In this document: in pieces, positions 815-61,557 of the stretch
Layout of the letters: every line of letters starts with the position of its first letter
How positions within the stretch are numbered: the first letter of the stretch is position 1
IMG/VR virus record: IMGVR_UViG_3300015249_000001
Coordinates: 1 to 64,000 of that record
DNA length: 64,000 bases
Reading direction: 5' to 3' (one strand)
DNA from: a virus
Notes under the pieces: model-generated
Seen by the model: only the letters and a program-made list of their open reading frames with translations
What the model was told of the DNA's origin: nothing
Databases searched by the model: none
Program-made: the position numbers and the translations under genes

Positions 815-826
815 TTGTAGTTACAA
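815..826. promoter_or_regulatory. dyad TTGTAGTTACAA (exact TTGTA-NN-TACAA)
   Basis: 20 nt upstream of - strand start 794. Confidence 0.7.
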
Positions 827-833
827 AAAGTAA

Positions 834-3800
834 TCATTTCCTACTGCCTGTCTTCAACCGTTGTAACCTGACCTGGGACTGGAAGCTAGGCACTTGGTCA
901 GGTTCCGCCATCGCGGTCAAGGTTGCCCCGCCCACATCTATGATGACCGGTTGCAGCGTTTGTGTCACTGTCCTGTCGGGCCTAGCCAACCCTGGGCTAG
1001 AGGGCTTGCTGATCCTTTGGGCCACTTCTGGGTCGAGTTGCAACGTACGCAACTTGTCCATGAAGTCCTTACCGTAAAGGTTGACCGCGCTGGCGGGTTG
1101 CATGTACTCACCATCTGAACCCCACAGGGGCACCTTGTCCTCTGTAGGTCCTCCAGGACCCTGGACTAGCCCACCTTGGGCATAGCCTATAAGCGTAGTA
1201 TCCTGTGGTTGTTCATTCTTCTTGCGCAGCTTATCTGCAAGGTCAGAGACTTGGGAGTCGTTAAGCGTAGGGTTATTTTCCTCACCCCCCGATGCCCGGT
1301 CTTGGGCGGTCTCGGCTTTATTAGTCCCACCTGTGGGCGTACCCCCTGGAAAACCATTCGCCAAGGTCTCCTTAAGTTTTTCCAAGGTAGTCGTCAAGTT
1401 ATTCACCGCATCTGTCAACTCTTGTTCGGCATACCTGGAAAATAGCAAGGAACTATTAAGTGAATTTACCTCATCTGTCAGGTTGCTGACAAAATTTGAC
1501 TGTTGGTTGATCTCTTGTGAATTGATAGCCAAGGCTGTATCCCTGGCTTGCTCAGTCAAGGATAGTGCCTCATCCTTGCTTATGCCCCCAGAGGACAACA
1601 AGTCCTTGATGTCGGACACTGCCCCTTTCGCAAGCTCCACCGACCCGGATGCCCCTGCGGCAGTGATCGTGTCCTGGATGTCAGAGACTGTCAGCTTCTC
1701 CCCAGAGATTTCACGCAGGCTCTTGTTGAAAAAATCCTCTAACTCCGCCTGCTTCTCATACAGGCTGGCAAGCTTTTCCCTTGCGGATTGCAAGCGTGAG
1801 GACGCATTCTGCAGGTTATTCTCCAAGGAAAGTGTACGGCTCTTTTGCTCCGTAAGTTTCTTATTGGTGTCCTGCAACTTGCTGTCCAACTCCTTGCGTT
1901 GGGCATTTTCAAGGTCAGCTATACTCTCTTCCCTAAGCGTCTTTTCCTTCCCAACCACCTCAGATAAAGCCTTATATGCGTCCGCCAAATCCTTAGACCC
2001 GGCCAATGCCTGTCTTCCCACATCCCCGGATAGCGCTTTCAATAAGCCTTCTGGACCGACATCTTTGGTATCGAATAGGGCTTCCTTGTCCACCTGTTTG
2101 CGTAAGGCTACGGCCAACAACTCTTTTTCAGAAGCAAGTTGCTTCTTTTGTATTTCATAAATTTCCTGGATAAGCTTGACCTCATCTTCCGTAGAATGCA
2201 CCTTGGTGTTGTGCAAGGTGGCTAGCCTGCCTTTCAGGTTTTTGACTTCAAGTTCCCCGACCAGGGACTGGCGTTGGGCTGCTTCCAGCTTCTGCTCCGT
2301 GGTTTCTTCCTCGACCGCAGAACTTGCCAACAAGTCTTTAGCCCGGACTAACCGCTCCTGGTGGGTTATGAGCTGTTTCTTTAAGTCCTCTAATCGGGCA
2401 TCAGTAACATTTCCATCAGCTACCTCCTTCTGGGTGTACCGGATAAAATCTTGCAGGCTCTTCTGCTCCTGCTCCACTACTTTCTTCTGCCCTTCCTTAA
2501 GCTGAGCTGCATGTTCGTTAGCTTTTTTACGGTCTTCAAGGCTTTTAGCAAAGTCTTGTTCAAAGTTCTCTGCCGTGGGCAGTTTCCTGTTTATGGGCAC
2601 TTCATTCTGGGATAGCGTCAACGCCTTTTGGAACTTTTCCAATCCTAGGTTAGCTTTATTTTTGGCCGCATCTGCCAATATTGAGGGGGAAAACAGCTTA
2701 CCCTCCTTAGTGATACTTAGGATAGCCTCTACCAACTGGGTTTGCCCATCCTCTATAGCTGAGAAGGTTTCTGCTTGCAGCCTTGCATAGCTAGGCCCCT
2801 GGATGCCGAGTGGATCCACTTGGAAAGCCTTGAAAAATTGCTCTATCTCTTTTTTCTTGTCCTCCAGCTTGTCCCCTTTGAGTTCTTTCTGGGACGTTTT
2901 AACAAACTCGGTCAGGGATAATTTACTGCCCTTCAATTCAAGCAACTTGTTAGCTTGCTCAATGTCCTGGGTACGTGTGTAAATAAGGCTGCGTTCTTTA
3001 TCGGTCAGCTTACCGAACGCATCAAGCAGCAGCTTTTCCTGCTCAGAAAGGCTACCTGCCTGCTGGTTTGAGAATGCTTTCTTGAGGTCTCCTAGCAATA
3101 CTTTCCGGACCCCTTCCGCCTCCTGCACAGCCGTATTGTACTTCTGCAAATCGGAAGCCAATTGGTTCCTGTCTACAGCCCCCTTAGCCAGCCCTGCTGA
3201 CTTTTCCAACTCTATGGCGACGTCTTCCAACGCTTGGCTACCGACAGCCACAACCTCATCAGAAGCTACCTTGAACAGCTCAGTAATCTTGTCCTTATTG
3301 GCATCGTTCAAATACACATCCAAGGCAGAATTGGCTTTGGAAATTGTGTCTTTAAAAGATTGGACTTGTTTGGCTTCCTCTTCTGCGGAGGCCTTCAAGG
3401 CGTCGAACGCTTCCTGCGCCTTTTGGTTCTCTATGCCAAGGGCTGCCAACGCCTTGGCCTTTTCCTCCTCGATGCGCTGCTTGTTGCCGAAAATATCCGT
3501 CTTGTCTATGACGTAGTTAATGCCTTCATAAAGACCATAAATAGCCAAAGACCAAGGGGCCAATCGGGTAACTATAAGGGTGCTGGCTACTTTTATGCCC
3601 TCCCATAACTTAGTGGCCGAAGTGGCGTAACCAAGGATAATACCGGCCACCGCCTTGGCCTTGGAGGTGATGCCACCGATCTTATCTTTTGCCAGCTGGG
3701 ACAGGGTGGCCAAGGTGCTGACAGTTTCCTCCGCCAAAATCACTCCATCAGGACCTACAGCCGAGGCAACCTTGCCCGCCCCCTTGGCTTTGGCTACCGC

Positions 3801-11468: not shown

Positions 11469-12071
11469 TTACCTCTGCACTAAGGTTACGTGGTAAAGGG
11501 AGAGTTCGGGGTAGACTTCCTTGATGTCATATTCGTAAGCCCTGCCCTCAGGGCTTGTCCAGCGTAAAATGTGCTCAGGCCTTATCGCGGAGTAAGTTGG
11601 GATATACCCGTTCAGCTTGCTTTGGGTAACGTCCCTGGTGTATGTCCCGGCGACGCCAGCATACCTGTCGGTTGCGAAGGGGAACAACCCTAGGGAAGCT
11701 TCCACTTTCTCCCCAGAGACCCCTGAGGCCTTGATTTGGGGCACCAGGTTGAATAATTCTGCATAACCCACCTCAACACTCAGCAAGGTGTACTCATAAG
11801 CGTAACCCTTATCCGCTTCAATGTTAGGCTGCATACCATAAATCAAGTACTGCTCGGGGCTGGAGGTGAACCGGATAACTTGTGCCCCTGTGGGCAGCAA
11901 GGAAGGCGACAATAAGAACCTGCGGGCGAAGAAGCTTTCCGTCCTGCCTATCCAACGTCCGCTCGTAGGCAACTGTACCCTAAAGCCTAGGGGCACCCAA
12001 AGCTGCGTGGTGCTGTCAAACACCTCTGCCGTGTTGCGGCTCAGCTTGCCAAAGGCCTGTTGGAACCACAC
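11469..12071 (-). CDS. hypothetical virion-module protein
   Basis: 200 aa; GTG start abutting upstream stop. Confidence 0.55.
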   Translation of the reverse strand: MWFQQAFGKLSRNTAEVFDSTTQLWVPLGFRVQLPTSGRWIGRTESFFARRFLLSPSLLPTGAQVIRFTSSPEQYLIYGMQPNIEADKGYAYEYTLLSVEVGYAELFNLVPQIKASGVSGEKVEASLGLFPFATDRYAGVAGTYTRDVTQSKLNGYIPTYSAIRPEHILRWTSPEGRAYEYDIKEVYPELSLYHVTLVQR

Positions 12072-12527
12072 TCAGCCACCCCCGGCAACACCTGTCACAG
12101 GGTCGTATTCTGGTTCAGCCTTGCTCACCAAGGTGAACATGCCTGTGGGGTAGATTGCCCCTACTGCAGGGTTAAGTTCCTTTTCCAAGGCACCTATCCG
12201 GCGTTTCAGGTTTTCTACAAGGGCTAGGAAATCTATGTCAAACCTCTCCATAGTGTCTTGGTTTGCCGCATACTTCTTGGCTACGGCCAACTGTCCTGTC
12301 CCAATGAACATCAAGGCCCCGTAAAGCTGCGCCCAGACCGTCAACCTGAGTTCGCCTTCCTCCGTGTCGAAGACCGCCTCATGGTTTGGGAGGATAGACA
12401 TGAGACGCAACAGCATGAGCTTGTCCAGGCCGGCATTGACCAGCATTGACTCCTCAACGTCATACCCGTCTACCCCGAGGCAACCCCGGATGGCATCCGT
12501 CGTAGTGTACAATATTTTTGTAGCCAC
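12072..12527 (-). CDS. hypothetical connector/adaptor-size protein
   Basis: 151 aa; GTG 12527 with GGGGG SD 5 nt upstream. Confidence 0.55.
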   Translation of the reverse strand: MATKILYTTTDAIRGCLGVDGYDVEESMLVNAGLDKLMLLRLMSILPNHEAVFDTEEGELRLTVWAQLYGALMFIGTGQLAVAKKYAANQDTMERFDIDFLALVENLKRRIGALEKELNPAVGAIYPTGMFTLVSKAEPEYDPVTGVAGGG

Positions 12528-12536
12528 AAAACCCCC

Positions 12537-14288
12537 TTAGGCGCGTGCCTTATTGTAGCCTTCTATCGACCCGCAAGCCAGCCGGTAGAGGATGCCTATG
12601 TCGGACGCCGTGGTCCCTGAGTTAGAACAGACTATGCCATTGCCGAAGTTGTTGGCGGCGGCATTGGGGATATTGGTGGTTATTGTCTGGTCGTAAACAG
12701 CGGTGGTGCTCGTACCTGCGTAAATCCTAAAACGTACAGAAGTACCTGCGGCATTGGCTTCCACGTCAAAGGTGTAGGCGGTGTCCAAGGACGCTGAGTA
12801 AGTGGTGCCGTGCGTCGTCCCCGTACTGGCTTTTGCAGTCTTGGCACTGATGACGCCGCTGCCGTCGCATTCAAACCATGCCCCGTTGGCCACCGCCGTC
12901 GTATTGGCTATGGCGTCGGAAAACCCTATCCTGACAGTGTTGTTAGTGAACGCGGTACGCCATAGGAATTGACACTGGAACTTTCGGCTGATAACCCCAA
13001 AGTAGTCCGCCCCTGCTATGGACATATACCGGTAACCGCCGTCCGCTATAGTGGAGCTACGGATCAGCACACCCCCTGAGTTGTACCCAAACTGTGCCGC
13101 CGAGGGTAACCCGGTATTGTTGTTACCCGAGCTGAGCGCAGCCCCCAACCAAAATTGCCCATTGGCATTGGTTGTATAAATCCTGGACTCCATCCAAAAG
13201 TCCCATAACCCCAGGACGGATGGCACTGCATAATCCGTACCTGCAGTAGCGATGCTAGCAACCCCGCTACCATCCACCTTGACCAACCCAGTGGTACCTG
13301 TAAAGTCAGACGCAACCTTGTTGGCCCCTGCACTCACTTTGAGCTTGCCAGATGCTGCACTGTTGCTTGCTTGGGTTACCATGTCGGCAACTGTTGCGCT
13401 GACCCCGGAAGGTGTGGCATAGTCCGTATCTGCGACTGCAGCCCCGATCTTGCTGTCAGCGCCTACCTTAAGGATATGGCTAGTGCCCGCGTAGGTTTTC
13501 AGGAGGTGGCTGGGGCCTGCGCTAAGCTTGATAAGGTCTGCTGTCGCTGGGGTGCCAAACTCATAAGCTATGAACTCACTCTCAAGCCTGGTAGGTGGCC
13601 TATTGACGCACAAGGCCACCCAATTGACCCTGACTACGCTGTCCAGGCTGTTGGCGTCCCCCAGCAAGGTTATTTGCAGCGCCGTCAAGCTGCCTGCTAT
13701 CCAGTCGCTAGGCACAGTGGAAGCCCGCATGTCAAAGTCCAATACCCACTCGTCCCCTACCTTCAAGAAATCTGGGGTGACCACACTTTTCTGGAAGCTG
13801 CCTGAAAAACCATGCGCACCTGACCCGCCCGCGCTGGTGGAATACTGGCAAATCACATTTTCTGACAACGCCCTGGTGCTGGCCCCCAGGCTAACCACCG
13901 TGATGCTCAGTTTGACGCGGGAGTACGTTACCCCGGAAGGCCCTATGTTAAAGCTAGGGGTTATGAGCCTCGTCTGCCCGCTCACCCCATCGTTGGCCAC
14001 CTGTATCCCGGTCTCAAAGACGGAATCAAAGGTCACCTCGTTGCCTATAGGGCCTGATGTGAACCCTTCCTCGTCAGAACGGAAGGTCCATATAAGGAGG
14101 TAGTCTGTGCCTACGCTATCCTGTTGCCCTTTGACAATACCCAAATCCACAACATTGCTACTGGAATCCTTTTGGCACAAATGCCCAGTAATCGCATCCA
14201 CGAACAGCCTGACCTTGCCGGACGGGGCTGCAGCAATGTCCGCAGCCGCAGCTACGGGGAGGTCTATCTTGCCTTCTTCAAACAGCAT
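12537..14288 (-). CDS. fibre-like protein
   Basis: 583 aa; G/S/T/A-rich; shares a ~55-aa segment (QASNSAASGKLKVSAGANK...AGTDYAVPS) with the neighbouring 361-aa fibre protein. Confidence 0.65.
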   Translation of the reverse strand: MLFEEGKIDLPVAAAADIAAAPSGKVRLFVDAITGHLCQKDSSSNVVDLGIVKGQQDSVGTDYLLIWTFRSDEEGFTSGPIGNEVTFDSVFETGIQVANDGVSGQTRLITPSFNIGPSGVTYSRVKLSITVVSLGASTRALSENVICQYSTSAGGSGAHGFSGSFQKSVVTPDFLKVGDEWVLDFDMRASTVPSDWIAGSLTALQITLLGDANSLDSVVRVNWVALCVNRPPTRLESEFIAYEFGTPATADLIKLSAGPSHLLKTYAGTSHILKVGADSKIGAAVADTDYATPSGVSATVADMVTQASNSAASGKLKVSAGANKVASDFTGTTGLVKVDGSGVASIATAGTDYAVPSVLGLWDFWMESRIYTTNANGQFWLGAALSSGNNNTGLPSAAQFGYNSGGVLIRSSTIADGGYRYMSIAGADYFGVISRKFQCQFLWRTAFTNNTVRIGFSDAIANTTAVANGAWFECDGSGVISAKTAKASTGTTHGTTYSASLDTAYTFDVEANAAGTSVRFRIYAGTSTTAVYDQTITTNIPNAAANNFGNGIVCSNSGTTASDIGILYRLACGSIEGYNKARA

Positions 14289-14291
14289 GGC

Positions 14292-15377
14292 TTAGCCTAT
14301 AACGGTTGCAATCCTGGAGTCTGTCGTAGGGGCGACAAGGTAAGGCCCCACGGTGACCGTGTTGACCGTTGCCGCCACTATCCTGGGATACACCACCTCA
14401 TCGGTCGAGGCGTCCCTGACCGTCACGGACACAGCCTTGGTGCCCAGGTTATGGGTCAAGGTGTAAGTGGTCGTCGTGCCGTCCCCGAAAGTAAAGGTCT
14501 TGGACTGGGTGAAGCCGACCAGGGCGGAAGGCACCACTGCCTTGGTGGTGTTGCTCTTGGCAAGGGCTTCGGCATTGGTTGCCAAGGCTACAAGGCCCAA
14601 TACGGACTCCGTGGCCTGGTCAACATTCGTTTGCACCACTGTCCAGTTAGCCCCTACAGCAGCCTGTGTTCCGGCAGCAGAGGTGACAAAACAGAAAATC
14701 TCATCCCCCACCTGGACAGGAAGGCCGGAAGCTCCCCCGATCAAACCTGCCACGGTGATCCTGTAATACTCCCCGGCATTGGCTGCAGGGTAGTTCGGGT
14801 TGGTGGAGGCGTCAATGCCACCCATTGGCTTTGCCAGCCCAGTGATCGCAGACGCAATTGCCTGGGACACCGCTAAGGCAGAAGGTAATTGCGTACCTGT
14901 AGCCCCCGACAAGGTGGAGGAGGTGTTGAGTACCCCTGACGCCAGGTCAGCAGTTTCCAGGTTACTGATGCTGTTACCTGTGCCGTTGGCATCAAAGGTC
15001 TTGTTTGTGAAGGTGTTGGTTGAACCCGCCGTGACGTAATCAGTGCCCGCCGAGGCGGTGGACGCCACCCCGGATGCCGTCTTTATCAGCCCGTCTGAGC
15101 CAGCATAGTCCGTGATCGACTTGTCTGCACCTGCAGATACCTTAAGCTTCCCAGAAGCAGAGGAGTTGGATGCCTGTGTGACATCCCCCGTCCCTGCACC
15201 TGCCCCTGCCTCGTCCCAGGTAGTCCCGTTGTACGTACGCATCCTATTGGATACCGTATTAAAATAAGTACGGCCTACGAACAGGTTGGTAACAGGGTCA
15301 GCCGCGAGCTTTTCAAACCCCCACCCCCTAATCTCATAGCCCCCGTCAGCGGCCTTTAAATGGTCTTCAATTATCAT
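14292..15377 (-). CDS. tail-fibre-like protein
   Basis: 361 aa; GGAG SD; contains VLGLVALATNAEALAKSNTTKAVVPSAL, a motif I associate with phage tail-fibre repeats, plus AGTDY repeat units. Confidence 0.7.
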   Translation of the reverse strand: MIIEDHLKAADGGYEIRGWGFEKLAADPVTNLFVGRTYFNTVSNRMRTYNGTTWDEAGAGAGTGDVTQASNSSASGKLKVSAGADKSITDYAGSDGLIKTASGVASTASAGTDYVTAGSTNTFTNKTFDANGTGNSISNLETADLASGVLNTSSTLSGATGTQLPSALAVSQAIASAITGLAKPMGGIDASTNPNYPAANAGEYYRITVAGLIGGASGLPVQVGDEIFCFVTSAAGTQAAVGANWTVVQTNVDQATESVLGLVALATNAEALAKSNTTKAVVPSALVGFTQSKTFTFGDGTTTTYTLTHNLGTKAVSVTVRDASTDEVVYPRIVAATVNTVTVGPYLVAPTTDSRIATVIG

Positions 15378-15386
15378 GATAAGCTC

Positions 15387-15725
15387 CTAACTTAAAATTA
15401 ATGTGCCGCTGAACAAATTGGTAAAGCTGACTGTGACGTTGTTCAGGTCAACGTAGTTGATTGTGCCGCCAAACCACTCGGTACCCCCATTATCCAGCAC
15501 CCTGATGGCAGGTTTCTTTTGCATGTTGTGGGTGCAGGAAATGTTGGTGGAGTCGTTAAAGTCGAAGGTGAAGGACAGGTTGGGCTTGCCCAGTATGGTG
15601 TTCCAGTCCCCGGTACCCGGCCCTGGCGGGCCTTGGCTGCCCGTGGTGACAATAGACACCTGCGTGCTGGGGGCATTGACCACCTGCTTTTGGGTTTGAA
15701 GGACAACAGCGACTTGTTCACTCAT
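15387..15725 (-). CDS. small fibre-associated protein with short collagen-like tract
   Basis: 112 aa; GSQGPPGPGTG tract; ATGA overlap with upstream gene. Confidence 0.55.
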   Translation of the reverse strand: MSEQVAVVLQTQKQVVNAPSTQVSIVTTGSQGPPGPGTGDWNTILGKPNLSFTFDFNDSTNISCTHNMQKKPAIRVLDNGGTEWFGGTINYVDLNNVTVSFTNLFSGTLILS

Positions 15726-16342
15726 ACGGCAGTGGTGACCTCATCACAAAAAGTAGCAACGCCTGAGATCAAGGGGTCCACAATACCTGCAGCCGTGACC
15801 AGTTCAAGGTCATAGACACCGGTATCCTGGGTTATGGCTGACAGCGTGTCAGCATCCACTGACAAGACCACCTTCTTGTTGGTGGTATCCAAGGTGACCC
15901 TGCCATTGGCAGTGGTGAGCAGCAATATTTCGGTGCCCCCCACGGCAGTCTTGACCTGCATACGGGCGGAGGTGTAAGCCGACAAGTCCACGGGAGAGAG
16001 GTACACCAAGTACCCCGTGGATGCCGTGTGTGCAGGGTCCTCGAGGGTTATCTTGGCATTGAACTCTATAGTGTCGGCATCTATTACGGTCGCCTCCCTA
16101 AAGTCCTTGTTCTTTGGGGGAATGTTCAGGCTGTTCAAGCTGGTCAGCCCCTGGGCGCTGAGCACGGCAACCCTCCATTTATCTGGTAGGCCATGCGCAG
16201 GGCATACAATCCTGGCAGGGGCGGAGTTCTGTATAGTGGTTATGGGCTTGTAGATGTAAGGCATAGCCTCATACCTTAGCTCCCTGTAGAAGGAAGCCCC
16301 CCGGCAAAATTCAAGGTCAAGCTGGCCTGCACAACAGCTCAC
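15722..16342 (-). CDS. hypothetical virion-module protein
   Basis: 206 aa; GTG start with AGGAG 6-7 nt upstream. Confidence 0.55.
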   Translation of the reverse strand: MSCCAGQLDLEFCRGASFYRELRYEAMPYIYKPITTIQNSAPARIVCPAHGLPDKWRVAVLSAQGLTSLNSLNIPPKNKDFREATVIDADTIEFNAKITLEDPAHTASTGYLVYLSPVDLSAYTSARMQVKTAVGGTEILLLTTANGRVTLDTTNKKVVLSVDADTLSAITQDTGVYDLELVTAAGIVDPLISGVATFCDEVTTAV

Positions 16343-16345
16343 GGC

Positions 16346-16651
16346 TTACTCCTGGGTAGGTGGCACCACTACCCTCAAGACGCCTGCACGCACCTGCCTC
16401 TTCAACCAAGAGTTCTTTGGGTCATCAAGGTCGGCCACTTCAAGGTAGTTACGGTCGGTTATCAGGATGCCTGAAACGTGGTCCCGCAAGGGGTACGGGC
16501 CTGTGCATTGCAAGTGGACGGGGCCTTTCAGTACCTCGGTTTCTTGCTTGGTTGCGGCTTCCTCGATGGTGCTTTTTTGGGTGCTTTCATTGTCAGGCTC
16601 CGTAGGAGGTAACTTCTCAGGTTCATTTGTGTGTATTTTTGGGTTTGCCAT
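16346..16651 (-). CDS. hypothetical protein
   Basis: 101 aa; ATG 16651; first - strand gene after the HNH insertion. Confidence 0.5.
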   Translation of the reverse strand: MANPKIHTNEPEKLPPTEPDNESTQKSTIEEAATKQETEVLKGPVHLQCTGPYPLRDHVSGILITDRNYLEVADLDDPKNSWLKRQVRAGVLRVVVPPTQE

Positions 16652-16789
16652 TGGGGGTTAGCTCCTTTGTGTTAACTTTTTGAATTACAGGGTGTATAGT
16701 ACAAACACCTGGATAGCTTTGCAAGGCGATAAGCGGTTCGTCACCGTTTCCAGGAATCCTCGACTAAACCTATAACGTAAGGTGTCTAT

Positions 16790-17446
16790 ATGAGTAAAAA
16801 ACCAACAGGTGCCCCGCGCCGCATACAGCTTAACAAAGGTGACCGGTTTGGTAAATTGGTTGTCATCAAGGAAGCTGAAAAATATTCCCTGCCTTGTGGC
16901 ACTTCCCAAAGAAGGTTCCTTTGCAAGTGTGACTGCGGGAATAAGTCCGAGGTGTTCCTGAGTTTGTTGAGGAGTGGGACTACCCAGTCTTGTGGGTGTG
17001 CGGGCAAGCATGGGCATAGCAGGACGCCGGAGTATGACGCCTGGGACGCAATGGTACAAAGGTGTACAAACCCTAAGAACCCATCTTATCCAAGGTACGG
17101 TGGCAGAGGTATTACTATAGACCCCCTGTTTTTGGATTTCCCTGCTTTCCTTCTTCATATTGGAAAAAGACCCTCGAAACTGTACAGTTTAGACAGGGAA
17201 GATAACGAAAAAGGTTACATCCCCGGCAACATTAGGTGGGTTCTTAGAAGGACCCAAAATTTAAACCGCTGCAACACTAAGCTCTATGAATACCAGGGAC
17301 TATCCTTGGCCCTGTGCGAATGGGCTGAGCGCACCGGCATTCAAGAGAAAAGCTTATGGAGTAGGTTAAACGTCCTGGGGTGGTCTATAGAAAAAGCCTT
17401 GACCACTCCCGTCAACAGTGCTAAATTAAATATACCAGCCCCATAA
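16790..17446 (+). CDS. HNH/homing-endonuclease-like protein
   Basis: 218 aa; GDRFGKLVV..CKCDCG..SCGC then HGHSRTPEYDAWDAMVQRC..YGGRGI..LDREDNEKGYIPGNIRW, a pattern seen in free-standing phage endonuclease-like genes; opposite strand to flanking capsid genes. Confidence 0.65.
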   Translation: MSKKPTGAPRRIQLNKGDRFGKLVVIKEAEKYSLPCGTSQRRFLCKCDCGNKSEVFLSLLRSGTTQSCGCAGKHGHSRTPEYDAWDAMVQRCTNPKNPSYPRYGGRGITIDPLFLDFPAFLLHIGKRPSKLYSLDREDNEKGYIPGNIRWVLRRTQNLNRCNTKLYEYQGLSLALCEWAERTGIQEKSLWSRLNVLGWSIEKALTTPVNSAKLNIPAP

Positions 17447-17467
17447 GCTTACTTAGTACGCTTAGCC

Positions 17468-44264: not shown

Positions 44265-45188
44265 ATGGCAAAGAAGACAACAACAACAAAGAAGGTTGAC
44301 CTCTACCAAGAGGTCACTGACAAATTGGTGGCTGAACTGGAAAAGGGCGTACGCCCTTGGATGAAGCCTTGGGACAATAGCATCGAAGGTGTGGGTGTGC
44401 TGCCCTTAAGGGCTAACGGTACACCTTACAAGGGCATGAATGTGCTGCTGTTGTGGGGGACGGCCTGTGCAATGGGCTACGACAACCCGACTTGGATGAC
44501 TTACAAGCAGGCCTCTGAGTTGAAAGGCCAAGTTAGGAAGGGAGAAAAAGGCACCCCTATCGTGTTCGCATCGACGTTCAGCAAAGAAGTCGAAGGCGTG
44601 GACAAGCCCCAGAAAATACCTTTCCTGCGGTCGTACACTGTGTTCAATATTGCACAGATTGACGGGCTGCCTGAGAAGTACCATACACCCAAGATGCCGG
44701 TGCAAAAACCTGTCATGGAAAGGTTTGATGCCTATGACAAGTTCATAGGCAATACATTTGCCCATGTCAAGGAAGGCGGCAACAGGGCTTACTACAGCCC
44801 TGTTACCGACCATATCCAACTGCCCCCGATTGCAGCCTTCAAGTCCCCCTTGGGGTATGCCGCTACTGGCCTGCATGAGTTGACCCATTGGACTAAGCAC
44901 CCAGCAAGGCTCGACCGGGATTACGGCAAGAAGAACTGGGGGGATGAAGGCTACGCAATGGAAGAGTTGGTGGCTGAAATCGGTTCAGCTTTCCTTTGCG
45001 CCAGTATTGGCCTTGCGCCGGAGGTGCAGGAGAACCATGCGGCGTACCTGAAAAGTTGGTTGCGGGCACTCAAGGATGACAAGAAGTTCATCTTCTCGGC
45101 TGCCAGCGCAGCCCAAAAGGCGGCTGATTTCCTGTGGGAAATGCAGCCGGGGTATGTAAAACCAGTGGAAGAAAAGGAGGCTGCGTGA
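44265..45188 (+). CDS. ardC: ArdC-like antirestriction protein (ssDNA-binding N-domain + zincin metalloprotease)
   Basis: 307 aa; PWMKPW, PYKGMNVLLLW, WMTYKQASELKGQVRKGEKG (DUF1738-type) and HELTHWT, EELVAEIGSAFL metalloprotease part; exact cassette upstream. Confidence 0.85.
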   Translation: MAKKTTTTKKVDLYQEVTDKLVAELEKGVRPWMKPWDNSIEGVGVLPLRANGTPYKGMNVLLLWGTACAMGYDNPTWMTYKQASELKGQVRKGEKGTPIVFASTFSKEVEGVDKPQKIPFLRSYTVFNIAQIDGLPEKYHTPKMPVQKPVMERFDAYDKFIGNTFAHVKEGGNRAYYSPVTDHIQLPPIAAFKSPLGYAATGLHELTHWTKHPARLDRDYGKKNWGDEGYAMEELVAEIGSAFLCASIGLAPEVQENHAAYLKSWLRALKDDKKFIFSAASAAQKAADFLWEMQPGYVKPVEEKEAA

Positions 45189-47051: not shown

Positions 47052-47081
47052 TTGACAAACTGTACAGTACTGTGCTACAAT
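47052..47081 (+). promoter_or_regulatory. sigma70-like promoter
   Basis: TTGACA, 18-nt spacer, TACAAT. Confidence 0.6.
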
Positions 47082-47087
47082 ATTAAC

Positions 47088-47127
47088 TGGTAAAAATTTG
47101 GGCCCGTCCATCGGACGGGTTATTTTT
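47088..47127 (+). ncRNA. candidate ~40-nt attenuated transcript
   Basis: region between promoter 47052-81 and terminator 47103-27. Confidence 0.3.
47103..47127 (+). terminator. intrinsic terminator
   Basis: CCCGTCC-ATC-GGACGGG followed by TTATTTTT. Confidence 0.65.
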
Positions 47128-47148
47128 GCCGGAATAAATAATCACTTT

Positions 47149-47160
47149 TTGTAATTACAA
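47149..47160. promoter_or_regulatory. dyad TTGTAATTACAA (exact)
   Basis: long form 47140-47161; 15 nt before ATG 47176 (GHKL ATPase). Confidence 0.7.
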
Positions 47161-47175
47161 ATTTGGAGAAAGACA

Positions 47176-48867
47176 ATGGCATTACCCGCAAACACAGGAA
47201 ATTTGGTGAAGTATTTGGAAAAAAGCTTCACCAACAAGACCACCTTCTTGACAGAAATGATGCAGAACGCAAGGAGGGCAAAGGCAACCTATGTTGCATT
47301 TAACCTCGATGAAGAAAATAACAAGCTAGTGGTCACGGACGACGGTGTAGGGATCACTGAGAAATCCCTGCTGTTCACCATCGCGGAGTCTGGCTGGGGC
47401 AACATGGAGGAGACGGCGGACGTGGTAAAAAACGAAGACCCGTTCGGTGTCGGCTTCCTGTCTGTATTGTTCGCTTGTAAAACTATCCTTGTGGAATCCC
47501 CAGGGTTCTCCCTGTTCGGCGAGACTAGCAGGATACTTGGTGAAAATGTGTTCCATAGGGAGGACTCCAGCGATGTGGGGGCAGGCACAAGGATAGAACT
47601 GCGTGGGTTGAAGGCGGACAAGTCCACTTTCCTCAAAGTGGTCAAGGAAGCCAGTAGGGGTTTCCCTATTGAAGTCCTTTTTGATGGCGTCCCAATGGAG
47701 CGCCCTTACGCCCTTGATATTGGCAAGTTTGAGGAGTGCCCAATGGGGCAGTGGTGGTGGAGGGAGAAGGACTACTCAAGATACCCACAGGTAGGATACT
47801 TTATCCAGGGGTTGCCAGTAGGGGTCAACACCTACAGCGCTACATCCCATCCACAGATAGTCGTCCACCTGGATTGTAAGCAGTATTCAGCCAGGGTACC
47901 CGACCGGGCGGTGCTGAATGATGCAGAGGCGGCTGCTAAAGCTGTACTTTCCTTCTATGAGCAACAAGTCAAGGAGCTGTTCATTAGGATGCTCGAAAAT
48001 AGCCCCTTAGAACTTTTACGGCATAGGGATACCCTCTATAGACACGGTTTGCTGCACCTGCTAAACACGGTACAGGCTTTGCCCAAAGACTTGTTGTGTT
48101 CTGTGCAAGACTTGCCTTATATGACAGAGGATTCCTGTGACCGAGATTGGCTAGTAACCAAAAAAGAGAGCTTTACCAGAGAAGACATCGCGTCAGGGCG
48201 AGTCAAGGTGTTCCACTTTAGCGATGACTATGAAATGGACGGCAGGCAGGACACAGCAGCCCGCTTGGCCTGGATAAGGCAAGCCCATGACACGGACAGC
48301 TCCTGTGACTATTTAGTCTATGACGGTGGCCTGGACTCAGGGCATTGGCTATACGACTACCTATTGGATGAGGACAGGATGGAAATGTCTGTGCTAGTGG
48401 GTAGTCAGACTTTCAAAGGCAAGTACCGCGGGGATACCTTGGGCACTTATGACTTGGTTATCTGTAAGTCCTACACCTTGCGTATGGAGTACGATTGGGA
48501 AGATGACCCCCGCAAGGAAGGGTTCCTTATGGATGTGCGGATTGATGATGAACCTTTGTTCTTGGCCAGTGAAGGGAATCTCTATACCCCTGGGAGAACC
48601 CACAGGCAAGACCTGTACAGCCTAATTAGGCAGATGGACAAGTTTTACAGCCAGGGTGACCAGCCCTTTGATGATGACCTAGTGTCCAAGGAGCTGACAA
48701 AGCTTAGCCAGTACATTTCCTTAAATTCTATGCAAGACCCTGCCCAAGCGTTGCTGTCTTTGATAGGCGGCCTGGACTTGTCCTTGTACCCAGGACTATT
48801 TGGCAAAGAGTTCAAGGTGGGGTTAAGTGGGGAAGGGCGACCTGTAGTCAGTGTGTTGAACACATAA
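47176..48867 (+). CDS. GHKL-family (Hsp90/MutL/MORC-type) ATPase
   Basis: 563 aa; Bergerat-fold motifs EMMQNARRA (motif I Asn), TDDGVGI (DxGxG), DPFGVGFLS (G-loop); exact cassette upstream. Confidence 0.7.
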   Translation: MALPANTGNLVKYLEKSFTNKTTFLTEMMQNARRAKATYVAFNLDEENNKLVVTDDGVGITEKSLLFTIAESGWGNMEETADVVKNEDPFGVGFLSVLFACKTILVESPGFSLFGETSRILGENVFHREDSSDVGAGTRIELRGLKADKSTFLKVVKEASRGFPIEVLFDGVPMERPYALDIGKFEECPMGQWWWREKDYSRYPQVGYFIQGLPVGVNTYSATSHPQIVVHLDCKQYSARVPDRAVLNDAEAAAKAVLSFYEQQVKELFIRMLENSPLELLRHRDTLYRHGLLHLLNTVQALPKDLLCSVQDLPYMTEDSCDRDWLVTKKESFTREDIASGRVKVFHFSDDYEMDGRQDTAARLAWIRQAHDTDSSCDYLVYDGGLDSGHWLYDYLLDEDRMEMSVLVGSQTFKGKYRGDTLGTYDLVICKSYTLRMEYDWEDDPRKEGFLMDVRIDDEPLFLASEGNLYTPGRTHRQDLYSLIRQMDKFYSQGDQPFDDDLVSKELTKLSQYISLNSMQDPAQALLSLIGGLDLSLYPGLFGKEFKVGLSGEGRPVVSVLNT

Positions 48868-50275: not shown

Positions 50276-50287
50276 TTGTAATTACAA
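50276..50287. promoter_or_regulatory. dyad TTGTAATTACAA (exact)
   Basis: 14 nt before ATG 50302. Confidence 0.7.
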
Positions 50288-50301: not shown

Positions 50302-51243
50302 ATGGAAATAACCGTTTATAAAATTTTGCAAGATAGCGACCCCTTTAACCCAAGGATGGACTGCGACATGCTAGGGGTGATGTACACATGCCACAGGAAT
50401 TATCGGTTCGGGGACCCAAAATGGGACACCTCTGTAAATTCCCCCCCTGACTCAATCGACCAGTTTATCTGGGACTTACAACCAGGGGAGTTGGCAGGCT
50501 TTCCTGGCTATTGGATGGAGGACGGGGAAGTCAGGCGTACCCTGACTAAGGAGGAGCAGGAAGAGTATTGGTACCTTGATGCTCGTCCTGGCTGGGATGA
50601 TGAACGCTTTGAGCAGCTAGACCAAGTATGGCAGGATAACGAACCTTCACAAGAGGAGGCTAAGGCTTTCCTGGAGGCCTTCGAGACTTGGAAGTCTGAA
50701 AATATCTGCATTTTACCGCTGTACCTGTATGACCATTCAGGGATCACGATGCGTACCTCACCCTTCAGTTGCCAGTGGGACAGCGGACAGGTTGGGTTCA
50801 TTTACTGCACCAAAGAAAGGTGCGATGAACTGGGGGCGGACTTTTCCAAGGCTGAGGACTGTTTACGCGCCGAGGTCGAGGAGTATGACCAGTACTTGAC
50901 CGGTGACGTTTATGGCTATGTGTCTTGGGAGTTCAAGCTTGAGGACTTAGAAGATGAAGAGGCCCTCTCCGACTTGGATAGGTTCGACACCTTAGCAGAA
51001 AACGAGCACGCCAAGGTTGTACTCTGGGATGGGTACTCCAACCTTACTGACCTGGAGGATTGGATGGAGTCCTCTGGCGAGGTGGAAGAAGGACATTCAT
51101 GTTGGGGTTTTTATGGTCAGGATTACATCAAGGAAGAGCTTAAGGCCGGGGCTGTCCGCCACTGTAAGTGGGTTGCAGAAAAGGCTGTCAGGGAAGCTTC
51201 TGAACAGGCTGAACGTAGCCGCCGTACTTACTGGTGCATGTGA
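50302..51243 (+). CDS. strongly acidic hypothetical protein
   Basis: 313 aa; exact cassette upstream; DSDPFNPRMDCDMLGVMYTCHRNYRFGD and LYLYDHSGITM..WDSGQVGFIY motifs recur in phage orphans I have seen; many D/E runs. Confidence 0.65.
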   Translation: MEITVYKILQDSDPFNPRMDCDMLGVMYTCHRNYRFGDPKWDTSVNSPPDSIDQFIWDLQPGELAGFPGYWMEDGEVRRTLTKEEQEEYWYLDARPGWDDERFEQLDQVWQDNEPSQEEAKAFLEAFETWKSENICILPLYLYDHSGITMRTSPFSCQWDSGQVGFIYCTKERCDELGADFSKAEDCLRAEVEEYDQYLTGDVYGYVSWEFKLEDLEDEEALSDLDRFDTLAENEHAKVVLWDGYSNLTDLEDWMESSGEVEEGHSCWGFYGQDYIKEELKAGAVRHCKWVAEKAVREASEQAERSRRTYWCM

Positions 51244-51458
51244 TGGCCAGGCATGTAAACAAATGGATATATGGCTGGAAGCTATATGTCCACTACGGCC
51301 AAGGATGGGAATATGAGTGCTTTGAACACACCCGAAAGGGCTACCTTGAAAACAAGAGGGCTTACCTTAGGGACTGTAAGCATCCCCAAAGGTGGTCACG
51401 GGGGAGGGAGCTGAACCCTGAATGGGGCCTGTGCCAGCCCGTGGGGTTGGAAGCATGA
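51243..51458 (+). CDS. hypothetical protein
   Basis: 71 aa from ATG 51243 (TGATG overlap); WKLYVHYGQGWEYE motif. Confidence 0.5.
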   Translation: MARHVNKWIYGWKLYVHYGQGWEYECFEHTRKGYLENKRAYLRDCKHPQRWSRGRELNPEWGLCQPVGLEA

Positions 51459-52365: not shown

Positions 52366-52633
52366 AGACCTGCCTTATGAGACCCTCCCTGCCCAAGTGC
52401 AGGGAGGGATCAAAGCCTACGTAATGAACAAGCGCGCCCCTGGTCATTTCCTGTCTTCCGTGTTAAAGAATGACCTGCTTGGGGCATTCTCCTATGCGGA
52501 CTTATCTAACAGGCAGGACTTACACCTGATAGTGAAGTGGCTGTACAACGAAGCCCCCTCCACTTGCTGGGGAAGTAAAGAAGCTTTTGACAAATGGGTC
52601 ACACAACCGGAGAAAGACAATGGAACAAAGTAA
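52352..52633 (+). CDS. hypothetical protein
   Basis: 93 aa from ATG 52352 (GAGGTGGAAG upstream). Confidence 0.5.
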   Translation: MQPFEDLPYETLPAQVQGGIKAYVMNKRAPGHFLSSVLKNDLLGAFSYADLSNRQDLHLIVKWLYNEAPSTCWGSKEAFDKWVTQPEKDNGTK

Positions 52634-53360
52634 ACAAACAGCAACTTTTGTAATGACAAATGAGGGCCACTCAAGGTTGACCACGCTGCAAAGGACGGTC
52701 TTGGGGCTTTGGGGGTTCACCGCGTATAAACACCAGAACCCTAGCGTGGTGTACACCGCCACGGACTTGAAGCAAGACCCGCCCAAGTTACCGGAGCTGC
52801 GCGAGGAATTGTCCCCCTTGGGCTACCCTGAGCTATATGCCAGTAGCAGGGAGTTTTTTCAGTGGAGGCTTTTCAAGCCAGGGGACTTTGTACCTTTTTC
52901 ATGGGTCCAGGTGCTGGAGGAGTGGTCAAGCACCACAGGCCTTGATGTCTTGGCCCAAGGGGTGACCCACGGGGACATGGACAATGCCTTACACTTCTTT
53001 GTTTTCCAGATTACACCTGAGGGCACAAGGTTTGCAGATGTCCATGACATCCTGAATTACGTTACCGAATGGTTGCCTAGGAAGGAAGGGAAAAAGTTTC
53101 CAGACCTGGATCTTAGTGGGTGCCAAGCACCAAGAGAGGATTCTGTATCCCAGGAGTGGAGACCCTTCGACTATCTCAGGGCGCAGCCTTGCCTGAAACC
53201 CCCCCGGCATGTGGTAATGGCTGAAAGCCTGGGGGATAGGGATGTTTTGGATGCCATACCTTTATGCCCCCAATGCTTTAAACATTATAAGCAGTCTTTC
53301 GATGACCGGGAGAATAGTTTAAACCTGAGCGTCTACAACTTAGCCCCGAGGGAGGGTTAA
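52620..53360 (+). CDS. hypothetical protein
   Basis: 246 aa from ATG 52620 preceded by exact GGAGAAAGACA; dyad 52648-59 lies inside codons 10-13. Confidence 0.6.
   Translation: MEQSKQTATFVMTNEGHSRLTTLQRTVLGLWGFTAYKHQNPSVVYTATDLKQDPPKLPELREELSPLGYPELYASSREFFQWRLFKPGDFVPFSWVQVLEEWSSTTGLDVLAQGVTHGDMDNALHFFVFQITPEGTRFADVHDILNYVTEWLPRKEGKKFPDLDLSGCQAPREDSVSQEWRPFDYLRAQPCLKPPRHVVMAESLGDRDVLDAIPLCPQCFKHYKQSFDDRENSLNLSVYNLAPREG
52648..52659. promoter_or_regulatory. dyad TTGTAATGACAA (1 mismatch)
   Basis: downstream of ATG 52620 (order SD-ATG-dyad inverted relative to other cassettes). Confidence 0.5.
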
Positions 53361-54504: not shown

Positions 54505-54534
54505 CCTGACAATTTGTATTTACAAATTGTCAGG
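54505..54534. repeat. 30-bp inverted repeat (14-bp arms, 2-nt spacer) built around the dyad
   Basis: CCTGACAATTTGTA-TT-TACAAATTGTCAGG, 8 nt after endolysin stop. Confidence 0.9.
54514..54525. promoter_or_regulatory. dyad TTGTATTTACAA (exact)
   Basis: core of the 30-bp inverted repeat 54505-54534. Confidence 0.7.
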
Positions 54535-58285: not shown

Positions 58286-58297
58286 TTGTAGTTACAA
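58286..58297. promoter_or_regulatory. dyad TTGTAGTTACAA (exact)
   Basis: intergenic, 39 nt before ATG 58337; preceded by hairpin AAGCGGAGG..CCTTCCGCTT. Confidence 0.65.
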
Positions 58298-59924: not shown

Positions 59925-60197
59925 ATGAACCAAAAAGAATTAGTTGATGTAGTTACAAAAACGTCAGGATACCCTAGGACCCAAGTGGAAAGTACCTTGT
60001 ACTCCTTGCTCAAAGCTATTGAAAGGGAAGTGGCCTCCGGAGGTGTAGTACGGCTGGTCAATTTCGGTACTTTCAAGACATTGCAGTATCAAGAGAGGAA
60101 CGCCATAAACCCGGTCACAGGTGCGCCTGTCATAAGGCCTGCAAAGAAAGTACCTAAGTTTTCTGCAGGCAAAAAGTTCAAGGACGCAATGGGCTAG
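59925..60197 (+). CDS. HU/IHF-family DNA-binding protein
   Basis: 90 aa; MNQKELV...VRLVNFGTFKTLQYQERNAINPVTGAPVIRPAKKVPKFSAGKKFKDA is a classic HU fold sequence. Confidence 0.85.
   Translation: MNQKELVDVVTKTSGYPRTQVESTLYSLLKAIEREVASGGVVRLVNFGTFKTLQYQERNAINPVTGAPVIRPAKKVPKFSAGKKFKDAMG
59947..59958. promoter_or_regulatory. dyad-like ATGTAGTTACAA (1 mismatch)
   Basis: inside codons 8-11 of the HU gene; may be coincidental. Confidence 0.35.
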
Positions 60198-60233
60198 GGA
60201 CAGCAATTAACGATAACCTTAAAGAGAAATGAA

Positions 60234-61109
60234 ATGACTAAGATAAAAGATAAAGTAGACGTAACAGAAAAGACAGTGATTGAAGGGGAACTGGCGTCAC
60301 CCCCTGCGACTTTGGCTGAGACCCCGGTGGAGGTCACAGAAGGCGAGCTTCTAAACCCTGATGCCCCTACGGAGCTTGCCCATACCGAAGAACAGTCCGT
60401 GGAACAGTCCGTGGAACAGTCCGTGGAACAGTCCGTGGAACAGTCCGTGGAACAGTCCGTGGAACAGTCCGTGGATGAACCTGGAATTCCCGAACCAACC
60501 ATTGCAGCCCCTGCCACCATTGCAGGCACTGCGGTAGCCACCAACCCTAACAAACCTAACCTGGCAGCACCTTTGCAAGCGTTGGCTGACATGGGTATCG
60601 AAGATGTGGTTATTGATTTCACATCCTTTCCAAAGATCACCTTGGAGAAGGGGATTTTTTCAACCGTCAATGGGCCTATCGGGTCTGAGTTCGAGTTCCA
60701 GTACCTGAGCAAGCACCCAAGCTACCTGCTGTCCTCAATCCCACCTGACAGGGATACCGACAGTGAATTGGTTTACTCGTTGGATGGCAAGGAAGACTAT
60801 GAGGGCAAGTCTTTTACGGACTACATTGCGGAGTGGAAGGCCAAAGGTTGGGATGCCAAGAAGACCAGTTACGACATCGTGTTGGGGGTCTGCTTAAATG
60901 GTGAGTTGGCTGGTGAAATCGTGCAGTTGCAGATTAGCCCTAAGTCACAAGGGGTGTTCGGTGGTTATTTGTTCAACCTTGGATTCAAAAAATTGAACCC
61001 TCTGCAAGTAGTCACCCGTGTGTATGCAGGCAAGATGCAAGGCCAGGGCACCAAGGCGTTTACGCCTTGGGCATTCAAGGTTGAGCGCAAGGTGGAAGCC
61101 GATGCCTAA
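60234..61109 (+). CDS. hypothetical replication-module protein with (EQSV)7 tract
   Basis: 291 aa; acidic repeat-containing N-part, conserved-looking C-part; between HU and SSB genes. Confidence 0.6.
   Translation: MTKIKDKVDVTEKTVIEGELASPPATLAETPVEVTEGELLNPDAPTELAHTEEQSVEQSVEQSVEQSVEQSVEQSVEQSVDEPGIPEPTIAAPATIAGTAVATNPNKPNLAAPLQALADMGIEDVVIDFTSFPKITLEKGIFSTVNGPIGSEFEFQYLSKHPSYLLSSIPPDRDTDSELVYSLDGKEDYEGKSFTDYIAEWKAKGWDAKKTSYDIVLGVCLNGELAGEIVQLQISPKSQGVFGGYLFNLGFKKLNPLQVVTRVYAGKMQGQGTKAFTPWAFKVERKVEADA
60390..60473 (+). repeat. perfect tandem repeat GAACAGTCCGTG x7
   Basis: read directly; encodes (EQSV)7. Confidence 0.95.
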
Positions 61110-61557
61110 CAGTATCACTATCCTTGGTCGCCTTGGACGTGATGCAGAAGTGAGGTACACCCCTTCGGGGGTGGCCCTTGCCGCATTTTCCTTGGCGGAT
61201 ACCATTGGCTTTGGGGACAGGGAGCAAACCAACTGGTATAACTGCTCACACTTCCTGCGGGATAAATCCAAGATGGCCGACCACCTTACGAAGGGCAAGC
61301 TGGTCATGGTGGTTGGGGAGCTTACCCTAAGGGCGTACACAGACAATACTGGGAACAAGAGGGTGTCCCCTGACATCAAGGTTGAGCGGGTGACTTTTGT
61401 AACTACAAATTCTCCAGGTTATCAGGATAAGGACAGGGAGGGTGGCAAGCCTACCAGCACAACCCAAGTACACGAAGCCCCGCCACCCCCTCCACCTGGG
61501 CAAGCTTTTGGGGACACGCCGGACTTTGACGACGAAGCCGATGATATCCCATTTTAA
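61102..61557 (+). CDS. ssb: single-stranded DNA-binding protein
   Basis: 151 aa from ATG 61102 (ATGCCTAA overlap); ILGRLGRDAEVRYTPSG..NWYNC..GKLVMVVGEL OB-fold pattern and acidic tail DDEADDIPF. Confidence 0.9.
   Translation: MPNSITILGRLGRDAEVRYTPSGVALAAFSLADTIGFGDREQTNWYNCSHFLRDKSKMADHLTKGKLVMVVGELTLRAYTDNTGNKRVSPDIKVERVTFVTTNSPGYQDKDREGGKPTSTTQVHEAPPPPPPGQAFGDTPDFDDEADDIPF
61397..61408. promoter_or_regulatory. dyad TTGTAACTACAA (exact)
   Basis: inside ssb coding sequence (..VTFVTTNS..), 177 nt before polA start. Confidence 0.5.

Follow-up and report, generated by a model that had tools for sequence, protein, structure and literature searches.

Why does an uncultured phage carry the same short inverted repeat at so many of its gene starts? 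The question is raised by a 64,000-nucleotide stretch of viral DNA (IMG/VR record IMGVR_UViG_3300015249_000001, positions 1 to 64,000; the whole of this stretch is referred to as the window), in which an inspection of the letters alone, called here the sequence-only reading, had noticed a 12-bp dyad, TTGTA-NN-TACAA (TTGTANNTACAA), mostly placed just upstream of start codons. Our analysis shows that this dyad is a real, selected and lineage-specific element, and we tentatively favour the view that it may serve as an operator for a small DNA-binding protein. The window stems from a siphovirus-like metagenomic phage genome of ~81.6 kb, which was also assembled as ENA ERZ27267776 k141_128248 and in Logan SRR6823971. 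The genes for portal, S49 protease, major head protein and a 2,049-aa tape measure protein lie on the minus strand in one arm (0.8-23 kb) and, together with a GpA-type terminase, bear out the earlier assignment to a phage. Early and replication genes occupy the plus-strand arm (28-62 kb), among them those for ArdC-like, HATPase_c_3, primase, SNF2 helicase, HU-like and single-stranded DNA-binding (SSB) proteins; PolA, C5 methylase and an intein-bearing helicase are encoded just outside the window.

A repeated and oriented dyad

Exact TTGTANNTACAA occurs 13 times in the window where shuffled sequence predicts 0.08 copies, 25 times when up to one mismatch is allowed (1.89 expected), and the core TTGT-N4-ACAA is present in 22 copies (1.23 expected); chance or composition as the cause of the repeats was ruled out by these shuffles. 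All 12 exact and all nine one-mismatch copies listed by the sequence-only reading were recovered, one further exact copy at 43937 having escaped it, and three extra one-mismatch matches (12518, 31341, 43900) lack the flanks of the other sites and come to about the number expected by chance. Thus, both the enrichment over shuffled sequence and the positional bias toward starts that had been proposed as checks were found. The description of the dyad as genome-wide holds for its many copies but not for their spread, since 20 of the 22 cores fall in 28-62 kb; the structural arm has only one good copy (815), and ~16 kb of the phage genome outside the window (contigs L125 and L222) contain no exact copy. 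Within 28-62 kb, 14 of the 20 copies are intergenic, although this region is 85% coding and only 15% non-coding.

Site alignment revealed that the element is longer than first described, and oriented, with the window consensus aATCACtTTTTGT[A/G]ATTACAAAA. TTGT and ACAA are invariant, a T-run and an A-run at the flanks stretch the dyad into a 16-bp palindrome, and mismatches gather at the two innermost dyad positions. Thirteen of the window cores are symmetric, six forward and three reverse, and the AATCAC flank is oriented. Searches of viral and genome collections with 16-mer and 20-mer patterns returned only single chance matches in A/T-rich genomes, a pattern for the cassette of dyad and ribosome site described below had no match in IMG/VR, and blastn against cultured phages yielded no meaningful match.

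A fixed distance to the start codon

In nine dyads the distance from the last base to an ATG is 12-16 nt and that to GGAG 2-5 nt (binomial tail 1.7e-14), which confirms the spacing claimed from the letters for all nine starts; taken in the order of these starts from 28241 to 50302, the gaps are 13, 16, 14, 14, 14, 12, 15, 14 and 14 nt (Table 1). The copy at 815, to which an equivalent position had been ascribed, does lie near a minus-strand start but falls outside the 12-16 nt class. Usually the dyad is followed, as part of the same cassette, by the initiation block GGAGAAAGACAATG, which is repeated exactly at 47165, 50291 and 52609 and nearly so at 28230, 28409, 29368 and 45446, and a cassette of 35-40 bp recurs almost verbatim at several unrelated genes. 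Near-identical initiation regions are also used by dyad-free genes (28409-28422, 29368-29381, 41533-41549, 52609-52622), and this 14-mer, separable from the dyad, serves the phage as a general high-use ribosome site. In practical terms, the motif marks boundaries of transcription/translation units and could improve annotation in this phage group.

Such a narrow distance, 12-16 nt at nine genes, is what an RNA element in the 5' untranslated region (5'-UTR) would show, transcribed as UUUGUA-NNN-ACAAA 2-5 nt upstream of the Shine-Dalgarno and acting as a RegA-like translational operator, as an A/U-rich enhancer or S1 landing pad, or as an endonuclease processing site that frees each cistron. We consider this explanation possible, if somewhat doubtful. 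It is in line with an orientation that follows the gene strand (copy 815 and the AATCAC flank in the window; 11 to 1 in the related phage contig L138), with the hairpins that often stand before the dyad, as at processing sites, and with the analogous SAS/ESAS repeats of other phages, for which a role in translation initiation was proposed (PMC3203893). On the other hand, about half of the copies lie away from ribosome sites, in a promoter spacer, on both strands of a gene-free region or within coding sequence, the invariant G and C would be needless for a simple S1 enhancer, and no RNA-binding protein family was detected by Pfam and PHROGs among the open reading frames (ORFs) of 28-62 kb.

RNA folding argues in the same direction. 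For the dyad hairpins, minimum free energies range from -1.5 to -6.3 kcal/mol and z-scores from +0.6 to -1.1, which makes the hairpins marginal and no better than shuffled sequence; their stems are invariant without covariation, and the L138 versions allow only 4 base pairs. The sole copy that folds stably (-25.9 kcal/mol, z = -4.9) is 54514, which is part of a long palindrome. Apart from this copy, an intrinsic terminator or stable RNA hairpin was ruled out by the fold energies and by the make-up of the element (A/T-rich, one G-C pair, no U-tract), in agreement with the earlier exclusion of a terminator. A small RNA that self-pairs via the palindrome fails for the non-palindromic L138 versions, and Rfam gave no match at the gathering threshold, nor was any tRNA found.

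Promoters and terminators around the dyad

The placement of copy 37544 in the spacer of a sigma70-like promoter was confirmed: promoter 37536-37565 is a strong sigma70-type sequence, TTGACA-18-TAATAT, and its 18-nt spacer accommodates the full dyad. It is followed by a structured leader of ~100 nt, a terminator (37625-37671) and then a dyad-free operon to 41028. NTGTA occurs at the same spacer register in 5 of the 14 strongest plus-strand promoters (p~1e-9).

The locked copies present a different picture. A -35/-10 pair with a 16-18 nt spacer is absent in or upstream of them, no TAnnnT in correct register occurs within the dyad itself, and the best sigma70 scores just upstream average 2.4, against a random mean of 0.4 and values of 12.8-16.0 for the strong promoters of the phage. 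For the locked copies, these low scores ruled out a relBE-like arrangement in which the dyad stands at +1 of a canonical sigma70 promoter, and geometry ruled out an activator site at -41.5, the dyad centre being only ~20 nt from the start codon. Hairpins or true terminators often precede locked dyads, and a common module recurs four times, in which a near-consensus sigma70 promoter, a 30-60-nt transcript, an intrinsic terminator, the dyad, a Shine-Dalgarno and an ATG follow one another. The module occurs in three phages (window 41126-41268 and 47052-47178, L138 3084-3216, and 340-461 of a second related contig, L140), with 92-114 nt from -35 to dyad in all four instances.

As the terminators in front of locked copies (41193-41218, 47101-47127; upstream of ArdC in L138 and L140) imply that the downstream genes seem to need re-initiation, and no sigma70 promoter is available upstream, the dyad could itself be a non-canonical promoter or initiator of middle genes, at which host polymerase, modified or redirected by a phage factor not recognised so far, starts in or just after the dyad and produces very short leaders or almost leaderless mRNAs. 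This we regard as unlikely. The directionality of the element, conservation that begins exactly at the dyad, and a divergent non-coding pair that resembles divergent promoters, one of them facing a terminator ~90 nt off, speak for it, as does a gene of L138 and L140 at which a dyad 3-5 nt before an ATG without Shine-Dalgarno fits a near-leaderless start. Against it, the Shine-Dalgarno begins 1-5 nt past the dyad, so a start would have to lie inside the dyad, with too few bases for a sigma70-type -10 and discriminator. Moreover, palindromic promoters are rare, the copy between -35 and -10 of a normal promoter occupies an operator position, intracoding copies have no downstream gene start, and the scans of the 28-62 kb ORFs revealed neither a phage RNA polymerase nor a sigma factor.

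A side observation concerns the strongest sigma70-type promoters in general, which have an intrinsic terminator within 30-100 nt (41126-41218, 47052-47127 and 37536-37671; L138 3084-3150; L140 340-400) and should therefore yield only tiny RNAs unless termination is overridden. This promoter-then-terminator layout is kept in three phages, always ahead of a dyad-gated gene or a long operon.

Conservation in related phages

Relatives were found via homologues of the HATPase protein (47176), which is encoded downstream of a locked copy, in other phage contigs. The sequence-only reading had suggested a search of related genomes for the dyad, and it is indeed kept at orthologous genes in four relatives whose proteins are only ~36-37% identical (L138, L140, L226 and L227). 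In L138 (36% protein identity, 47% G+C), 14 plus-strand copies of TTGTA-N3-ACAA were counted in 20 kb, compared with 0.33 expected, and in L140 (37% identity) there are four in 7.4 kb; a single copy, upstream of the HATPase gene, is present in each of L226 and L227, with the dyad and GGAGAAAGA retained. Overall, the dyad precedes the HATPase gene in five lineages and ArdC in three phages (window 44239, L138 3183, L140 432). An alignment of window, L138 and L140 at the HATPase gene revealed TTTGTA-NNN-ACAAA-N-TTGGAGAAAGACAATG as invariant, with a conserved block that begins exactly at the dyad and extends to the ATG, and nothing conserved upstream. In 78 loci with more distant HATPase homologues (<=34% identity), neither the motif nor a substitute regulatory repeat was present.

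Conservation that spans dyad, Shine-Dalgarno and ATG and is absent upstream is also compatible with the 5'-UTR element considered above, as is the L138/L140 gene family that has a dyad without Shine-Dalgarno. The near-verbatim cassettes, in turn, could be recombination joints of a mobile dyad and ribosome-site unit, for which the conjugation-related genes of the phage group (ArdC in the window, a type IV secretion cluster in the relative L123) might provide a context; against such joints, orthologous positions are kept across diverged phages, which indicates selection on function and not only copy-paste. A related thought is a single-stranded, ops-like mini-hairpin in the non-template strand that is read on the elongating polymerase. 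The ops element is a 12-nt element that recruits RfaH, and by analogy the 12-nt length, strand orientation and transcribed-leader position of the dyad would match its logic; against this, no NusG/RfaH-like (NGN/KOW) protein was detected among the 28-62 kb ORFs, and the dyads lie downstream of terminators, not upstream. We judge this pair of explanations, joint or ops-like hairpin, to be very improbable.

The dyad as a candidate operator

From the three roles that the sequence-only reading had offered, the operator gains most support, the canonical promoter falls away, and the non-canonical promoter and the RNA-level role remain as its rivals. The reading that we tentatively prefer is thus that a small dimeric DNA-binding protein would use the dyad as a DNA-level operator or roadblock throughout a regulon. 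The symmetry, the relO precedent discussed at the end, the promoter-spacer copy and the NTGTA spacers, the gene-free copies, a second overlapping dyad, the weak RNA fold, the lack of a sigma70 promoter upstream of the locked copies, the intergenic bias and the conservation all contribute to it. Around 20 sites in the early/middle half would share one operator with the core tTTGTA-NNN-ACAAa, usually TTGTA-NN-TACAA in this phage, and one small dimeric protein, phage-encoded and unrecognised or, less likely, host-encoded, would recognise its two abutting TTGTA/TACAA hexads. At promoter 37536, with the dyad in the promoter spacer, bound protein would stand directly in the way of RNA polymerase, and the cluster of sites in the non-coding region at 30.1-31.1 kb would likewise be occupied. 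At ~10 cistron boundaries, protein on the DNA just upstream of the Shine-Dalgarno would act as a 'stoperator'-like transcription roadblock, and such roadblocks would shut gene cassettes off together. The fixed spacing to the ribosome site may then reflect a position in the untranslated gap, in which the polymerase would have no ribosome behind it to push it through.

Three full-length 23-bp copies, two of which form a divergent pair with a gap of 53 nt, are spread over both strands of the gene-free region at 29.9-31.9 kb. The main dyad is overlapped by a second one, AATCAC-N5-GTGATT, at 28207-28223 (a near-perfect version, cATCAC-N5-GTGATT), 30140-30156 and 31117-31133, and a single base, A or G, sets which of the two overlapping dyads is perfect. 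This one-base trade-off looks like the mark of two competing DNA binders. An integration host factor (IHF) site (WATCAANNNNTTR) was rejected, the AATCAC flank having three mismatches to it, and the HU-like protein of the phage (59925-60197) is only a weak candidate. The surrounding region of ~2 kb (29900-31850) is A/T-rich in its left part, with several palindromes (a perfect one with 14-bp arms at 30512-30541; TTTGTATACAAA at 31013-31024), and C-rich with direct repeats in its right part (ACCATTCCCC..., 31400-31700); an origin or control hub is conceivable here.

Several results weigh against the operator. When all ORFs of 28-62 kb were scanned with Pfam and PHROGs, no ribbon-helix-helix (RHH), helix-turn-helix, Cro/CI, sigma, polymerase, NusG-like or CsrA-like protein was detected, the only DNA-binding-type matches being the HU-like protein and SSB, and as tblastn queries RelB, Arc, Mnt, CopG, ParD and omega had no match. 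The most basic early protein (29379-29612, 77 aa) was modelled by AlphaFold with four helices (pLDDT 72) and has no fold match in the PDB. The paired, adjacent 12-bp units of relO differ from the phage sites, which are single and whose upstream 12 bp (aATCACttt) misfit the hexad. In the relatives the element is directional, with A at position 5 invariant and its symmetric partner not, and the asymmetric L138 copies stand 11 on the gene strand to 1 on the other, as a symmetric homodimer would not predict. A DUF7352 gene of L138 and L140 carries the dyad 3-5 nt before its ATG without a Shine-Dalgarno, a placement that suggests a role in initiation rather than blockage. The 12-16 nt lock is tighter than a DNA roadblock needs and fits an RNA or transcription-start function better, just as the strand orientation and the conservation starting at the dyad are more in keeping with a 5'-UTR RNA element or a transcription start than with a roadblock. 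Finally, a phage that looks virulent has no obvious immunity repressor.

As to the binding protein, no cognate RHH was found by Pfam, PHROGs, tblastn or pattern scan, with the reservation that RHH proteins are short and divergent and that ~5 kb of the genome are unread, and no RelB/RelE homologue was found in the phage. PDB sequence searches with three small proteins were uninformative, likewise a pooled homology search. The best-conserved product in common with L138 (67% identity) is a basic, Trp-rich 71-aa protein (51243-51458), whose AlphaFold model (pLDDT 54) is unusable; its homologues form the N-terminal domain of 242-257-aa proteins (P0216, P0217), and it has no family or structure match.

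A broader idea, which appears quite unlikely to us, is that a novel small phage factor recognises the dyad and gates all gene cassettes where transcription and translation meet. In one version, this may be stoperator-type silencing in a virulent phage with a Gram-negative-like host, through a RelB-like dimer site; in the other, it may be an ops-like element that is read on the elongating polymerase and, together with the module of strong promoter, immediate terminator, dyad and ribosome site, may decide on polymerase entry into the gene.

Table 1 Coordinates of dyad copies and associated features in the window.
Feature	Position	Strand	Context
Dyad GATTACTTTTTGTAACTACAAA	815-826	-	Oriented with minus-strand genes; 20 nt to ATG 794
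GpA-type large terminase	24121-25902		
Dyad	28104-28115		Divergent intergenic region; 25 nt upstream of minus-strand dNMP-kinase start, TTG 28078
Dyad TTGTGATTACAA	28216-28227	+	13 nt to ATG 28241; ribosome-site-locked
Degenerate 23-bp element AGTCACTTTTTGTGATTGCAA	30136-30158	-	Divergent partner of 30214-30236, 53 nt apart
Full 23-bp element AATCACTTTTTGTAATTACAAAA	30214-30236	+	In ~2-kb non-coding region; no gene after
Full 23-bp element AATCACTTTTTGTGATTACAAAA	31111-31133	-	Includes perfect AATCAC-N5-GTGATT
Dyad TTGTCATTACAA	33750-33761	+	Right after stop codon of 630-aa gene; AATCAC flank; hairpin downstream; ATG 33801 at 39 nt
Dyad	37544-37555	+	Fills spacer of sigma70-type promoter 37536-37565
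Promoter TTGACA-18-TATACT, ~55-nt transcript, intrinsic terminator	41126-41218	+	Upstream half of promoter-terminator-dyad module
Dyad TTGTAATTACAA	41240-41251	+	16 nt to ATG 41268; after promoter 41126-41155 and terminator 41193-41218
Dyad	41981-41992	+	14 nt to ATG 42007; within last codons of gene 41547-42020
Dyad TTGTAATGACAA	42357-42368	+	14 nt to ATG 42383; within end of gene 42007-42393
Exact dyad	43937-43948		Inside gene 43855-44211; without T/A flanks; function doubtful
Dyad	44239-44250	+	14 nt to ATG 44265, ArdC-like gene
Initiation block GGAGAAAGACAATG	44254-44267	+	Usually after dyad, part of same cassette
Dyad TTGTAAGGACAA	45432-45443	+	12 nt to ATG 45456
Promoter TTGACA-18-TACAAT, ~45-nt transcript, intrinsic terminator	47052-47127	+	Second promoter-terminator-dyad module
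Dyad	47149-47160	+	15 nt to ATG 47176 (HATPase_c_3); after promoter 47052-47081 and terminator 47101-47127
Dyad TTGTAACAACAA	48876-48887	+	14 nt to ATG 48902
Dyad	50276-50287	+	14 nt to ATG 50302
Dyad TTGTTGTTACAA	51654-51665	+	Intracoding; 43 nt to ATG 51709
Core copy	52648-52659	+	28 nt into gene 52620-53360
Dyad	54514-54525	+	Tip of 14-bp-arm palindrome CCTGACAATTTGTA TT TACAAATTGTCAGG
Dyad	58286-58297	+	Intergenic, after hairpin; 39 nt to SNF2-helicase ATG 58337
Exact dyad	61397-61408		Inside SSB gene 61102-61557; not close to a start codon

Gene content and other features of the phage

No close relative of the window phage was found among cultured phages, and single-protein searches with capsid and terminase retrieved no relative from viral or genome collections. 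Judged by its gene content, with its own PolA, primase and helicases and no integrase seen, the phage looks virulent, and Pfam/PHROGs scans found no repressor, integrase or partition genes in it. Its nucleotide and DNA genes comprise a dNMP kinase, a MazG-like pyrophosphatase, ThyX, a C5 DNA methylase, the HU-like protein and a helicase split by a LAGLIDADG intein (mapped at window 27218-28078 on the minus strand, 38217-38612 and 59925-60197, and on L125 and L222 outside the window), a set that is suggestive of modified phage DNA.

The relative L123 (Logan SRR32020624_114, 97.6 kb) has a terminase that is 53% identical and a syntenic head module, and adjoining the terminase, at 11780-21779, it carries a full type IV secretion/conjugation cluster (VirB4, VirB8, TrbI, CagX, TrbL, TraG-like). 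The ArdC-like anti-restriction gene of the window phage lies at 44265-45188. Taken together, the L123 cluster and this gene might be hints of a phage-plasmid or conjugation link.

Two further repeats lie inside genes. A 12-nt tandem repeat, GAACAGTCCGTG, is present in 7.2 copies at 60390-60475 within a 291-aa gene, where the window has four extra copies (48 nt) relative to the ENA assembly of the same phage, the only difference between the two across the 14 kb compared. Within the gene of a 489-aa glycine-zipper/DUF6745 protein, a coding repeat of 12 nt, GCCGTCAGGGGT, recurs in degenerate form ~40 times at 42674-43158.

Comparison with known systems

The sequence-only reading had not recognised the dyad as a described element. 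This has to be tempered, as SAS/ESAS and stoperators are close parallels and the 12-mer itself matches the right half of the operator relO. At relO, one RelB RHH dimer binds per 12-bp hexad pair with the core [A/T]TGT[A/C]A (PMC2812701). The right half-site of E. coli relO (Qin prophage) is TTGTAATTACAA, the identical 12-mer, which 6 of the 13 exact phage copies match, and the left half, TTGTAATGACAT, resembles the phage variant TTGTAATGACAA; the 13 exact TTGTANNTACAA copies fit a RelB-type unit, in which two inverted hexads abut. Within the genome of E. coli, the relO site is followed by GAGGTGTAAGACATG and ends 12 nt before the relB ATG with the Shine-Dalgarno directly after it, so that the layout of dyad, Shine-Dalgarno and ATG is the same in both systems. 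The regulatory setting differs, as relO lies across the -10/+1 of its own promoter and serves the autoregulation of a toxin-antitoxin operon, whereas the ~20 phage sites are mostly promoter-free and the only copy within a promoter, 37544, lies in the spacer, unlike relO.

As a phenomenon, the dyad comes closest to three kinds of repeats from actinobacteriophages, namely L5 stoperators, SAS/ESAS of Cluster K and the dyads of Cluster O, the last two being of unknown function. Cluster A stoperators (L5 gp71) are dozens of ~13-bp sites, mostly in short intergenic gaps and oriented with transcription, that are thought to halt elongating polymerase and to silence many genes together (PMC4351075, PMC9283540). 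The window phage likewise has many copies of one short site, 14 of 20 being intergenic in 28-62 kb. In contrast, stoperators are asymmetric sites for the monomeric immunity repressor of a temperate phage, distributed genome-wide and not locked to ribosome sites, whereas the phage site is a dyad, confined to the non-structural half of an apparently virulent phage.

SAS/ESAS repeats occupy the non-structural half immediately 5' of start codons, with an inverted repeat before a Shine-Dalgarno-containing block, and recur at the same gene families when diverged relatives are compared; pairing of the repeat arms in RNA is unsupported and their function is unknown (PMC3203893). The phage dyad shares with them the restriction to the non-structural half, the proximity to ribosome sites and the retention at the same gene families in relatives. 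Their sequence is unrelated (GGGATAGGAGCCC and 17-bp imperfect inverted repeats with a variable spacer, in an actinobacterial host), and, unlike the phage dyad, they have no reported tie to promoter spacers or promoter-terminator modules. Cluster O phages, non-temperate siphoviruses, carry more than 30 copies of the 17-bp dyad TGTTCGG-N3-CCGAACA, many intergenic and mostly off promoters, which are predicted to bind a dimeric protein and whose function is unknown (PMC4351075); unlike the phage dyad, they show no link to translation starts and no strand orientation.

More distant parallels are the KorA/KorB operators of IncP plasmids and the T4 RegA regulon, in which one short operator stands before many operons or cistrons and a single small co-regulator acts on all of them. 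KorB operators act at promoters or at a distance, and RegA sites are non-palindromic RNA overlapping the AUG; no KorB or RegA homologues were found in the phage.

Start-site repeats such as SAS/ESAS, stoperators and Cluster O dyads have been catalogued in actinobacteriophages for more than 10 years, mostly without a mechanism. The dyad described here adds a new, clean example from an unrelated uncultured lineage, with a sharp 12-16 nt rule, four diverged relatives, a dimer-site precedent and a link to the promoter-terminator module. If either version of the gating factor were true, it would also suggest how the long-unexplained SAS/ESAS-type repeats in other phages work. If one small protein indeed switches ~10 cistrons and several strong promoters, the dyad would represent a compact and portable regulon switch, and would serve as a model, open to testing, for 'start-associated' phage repeats as a class.

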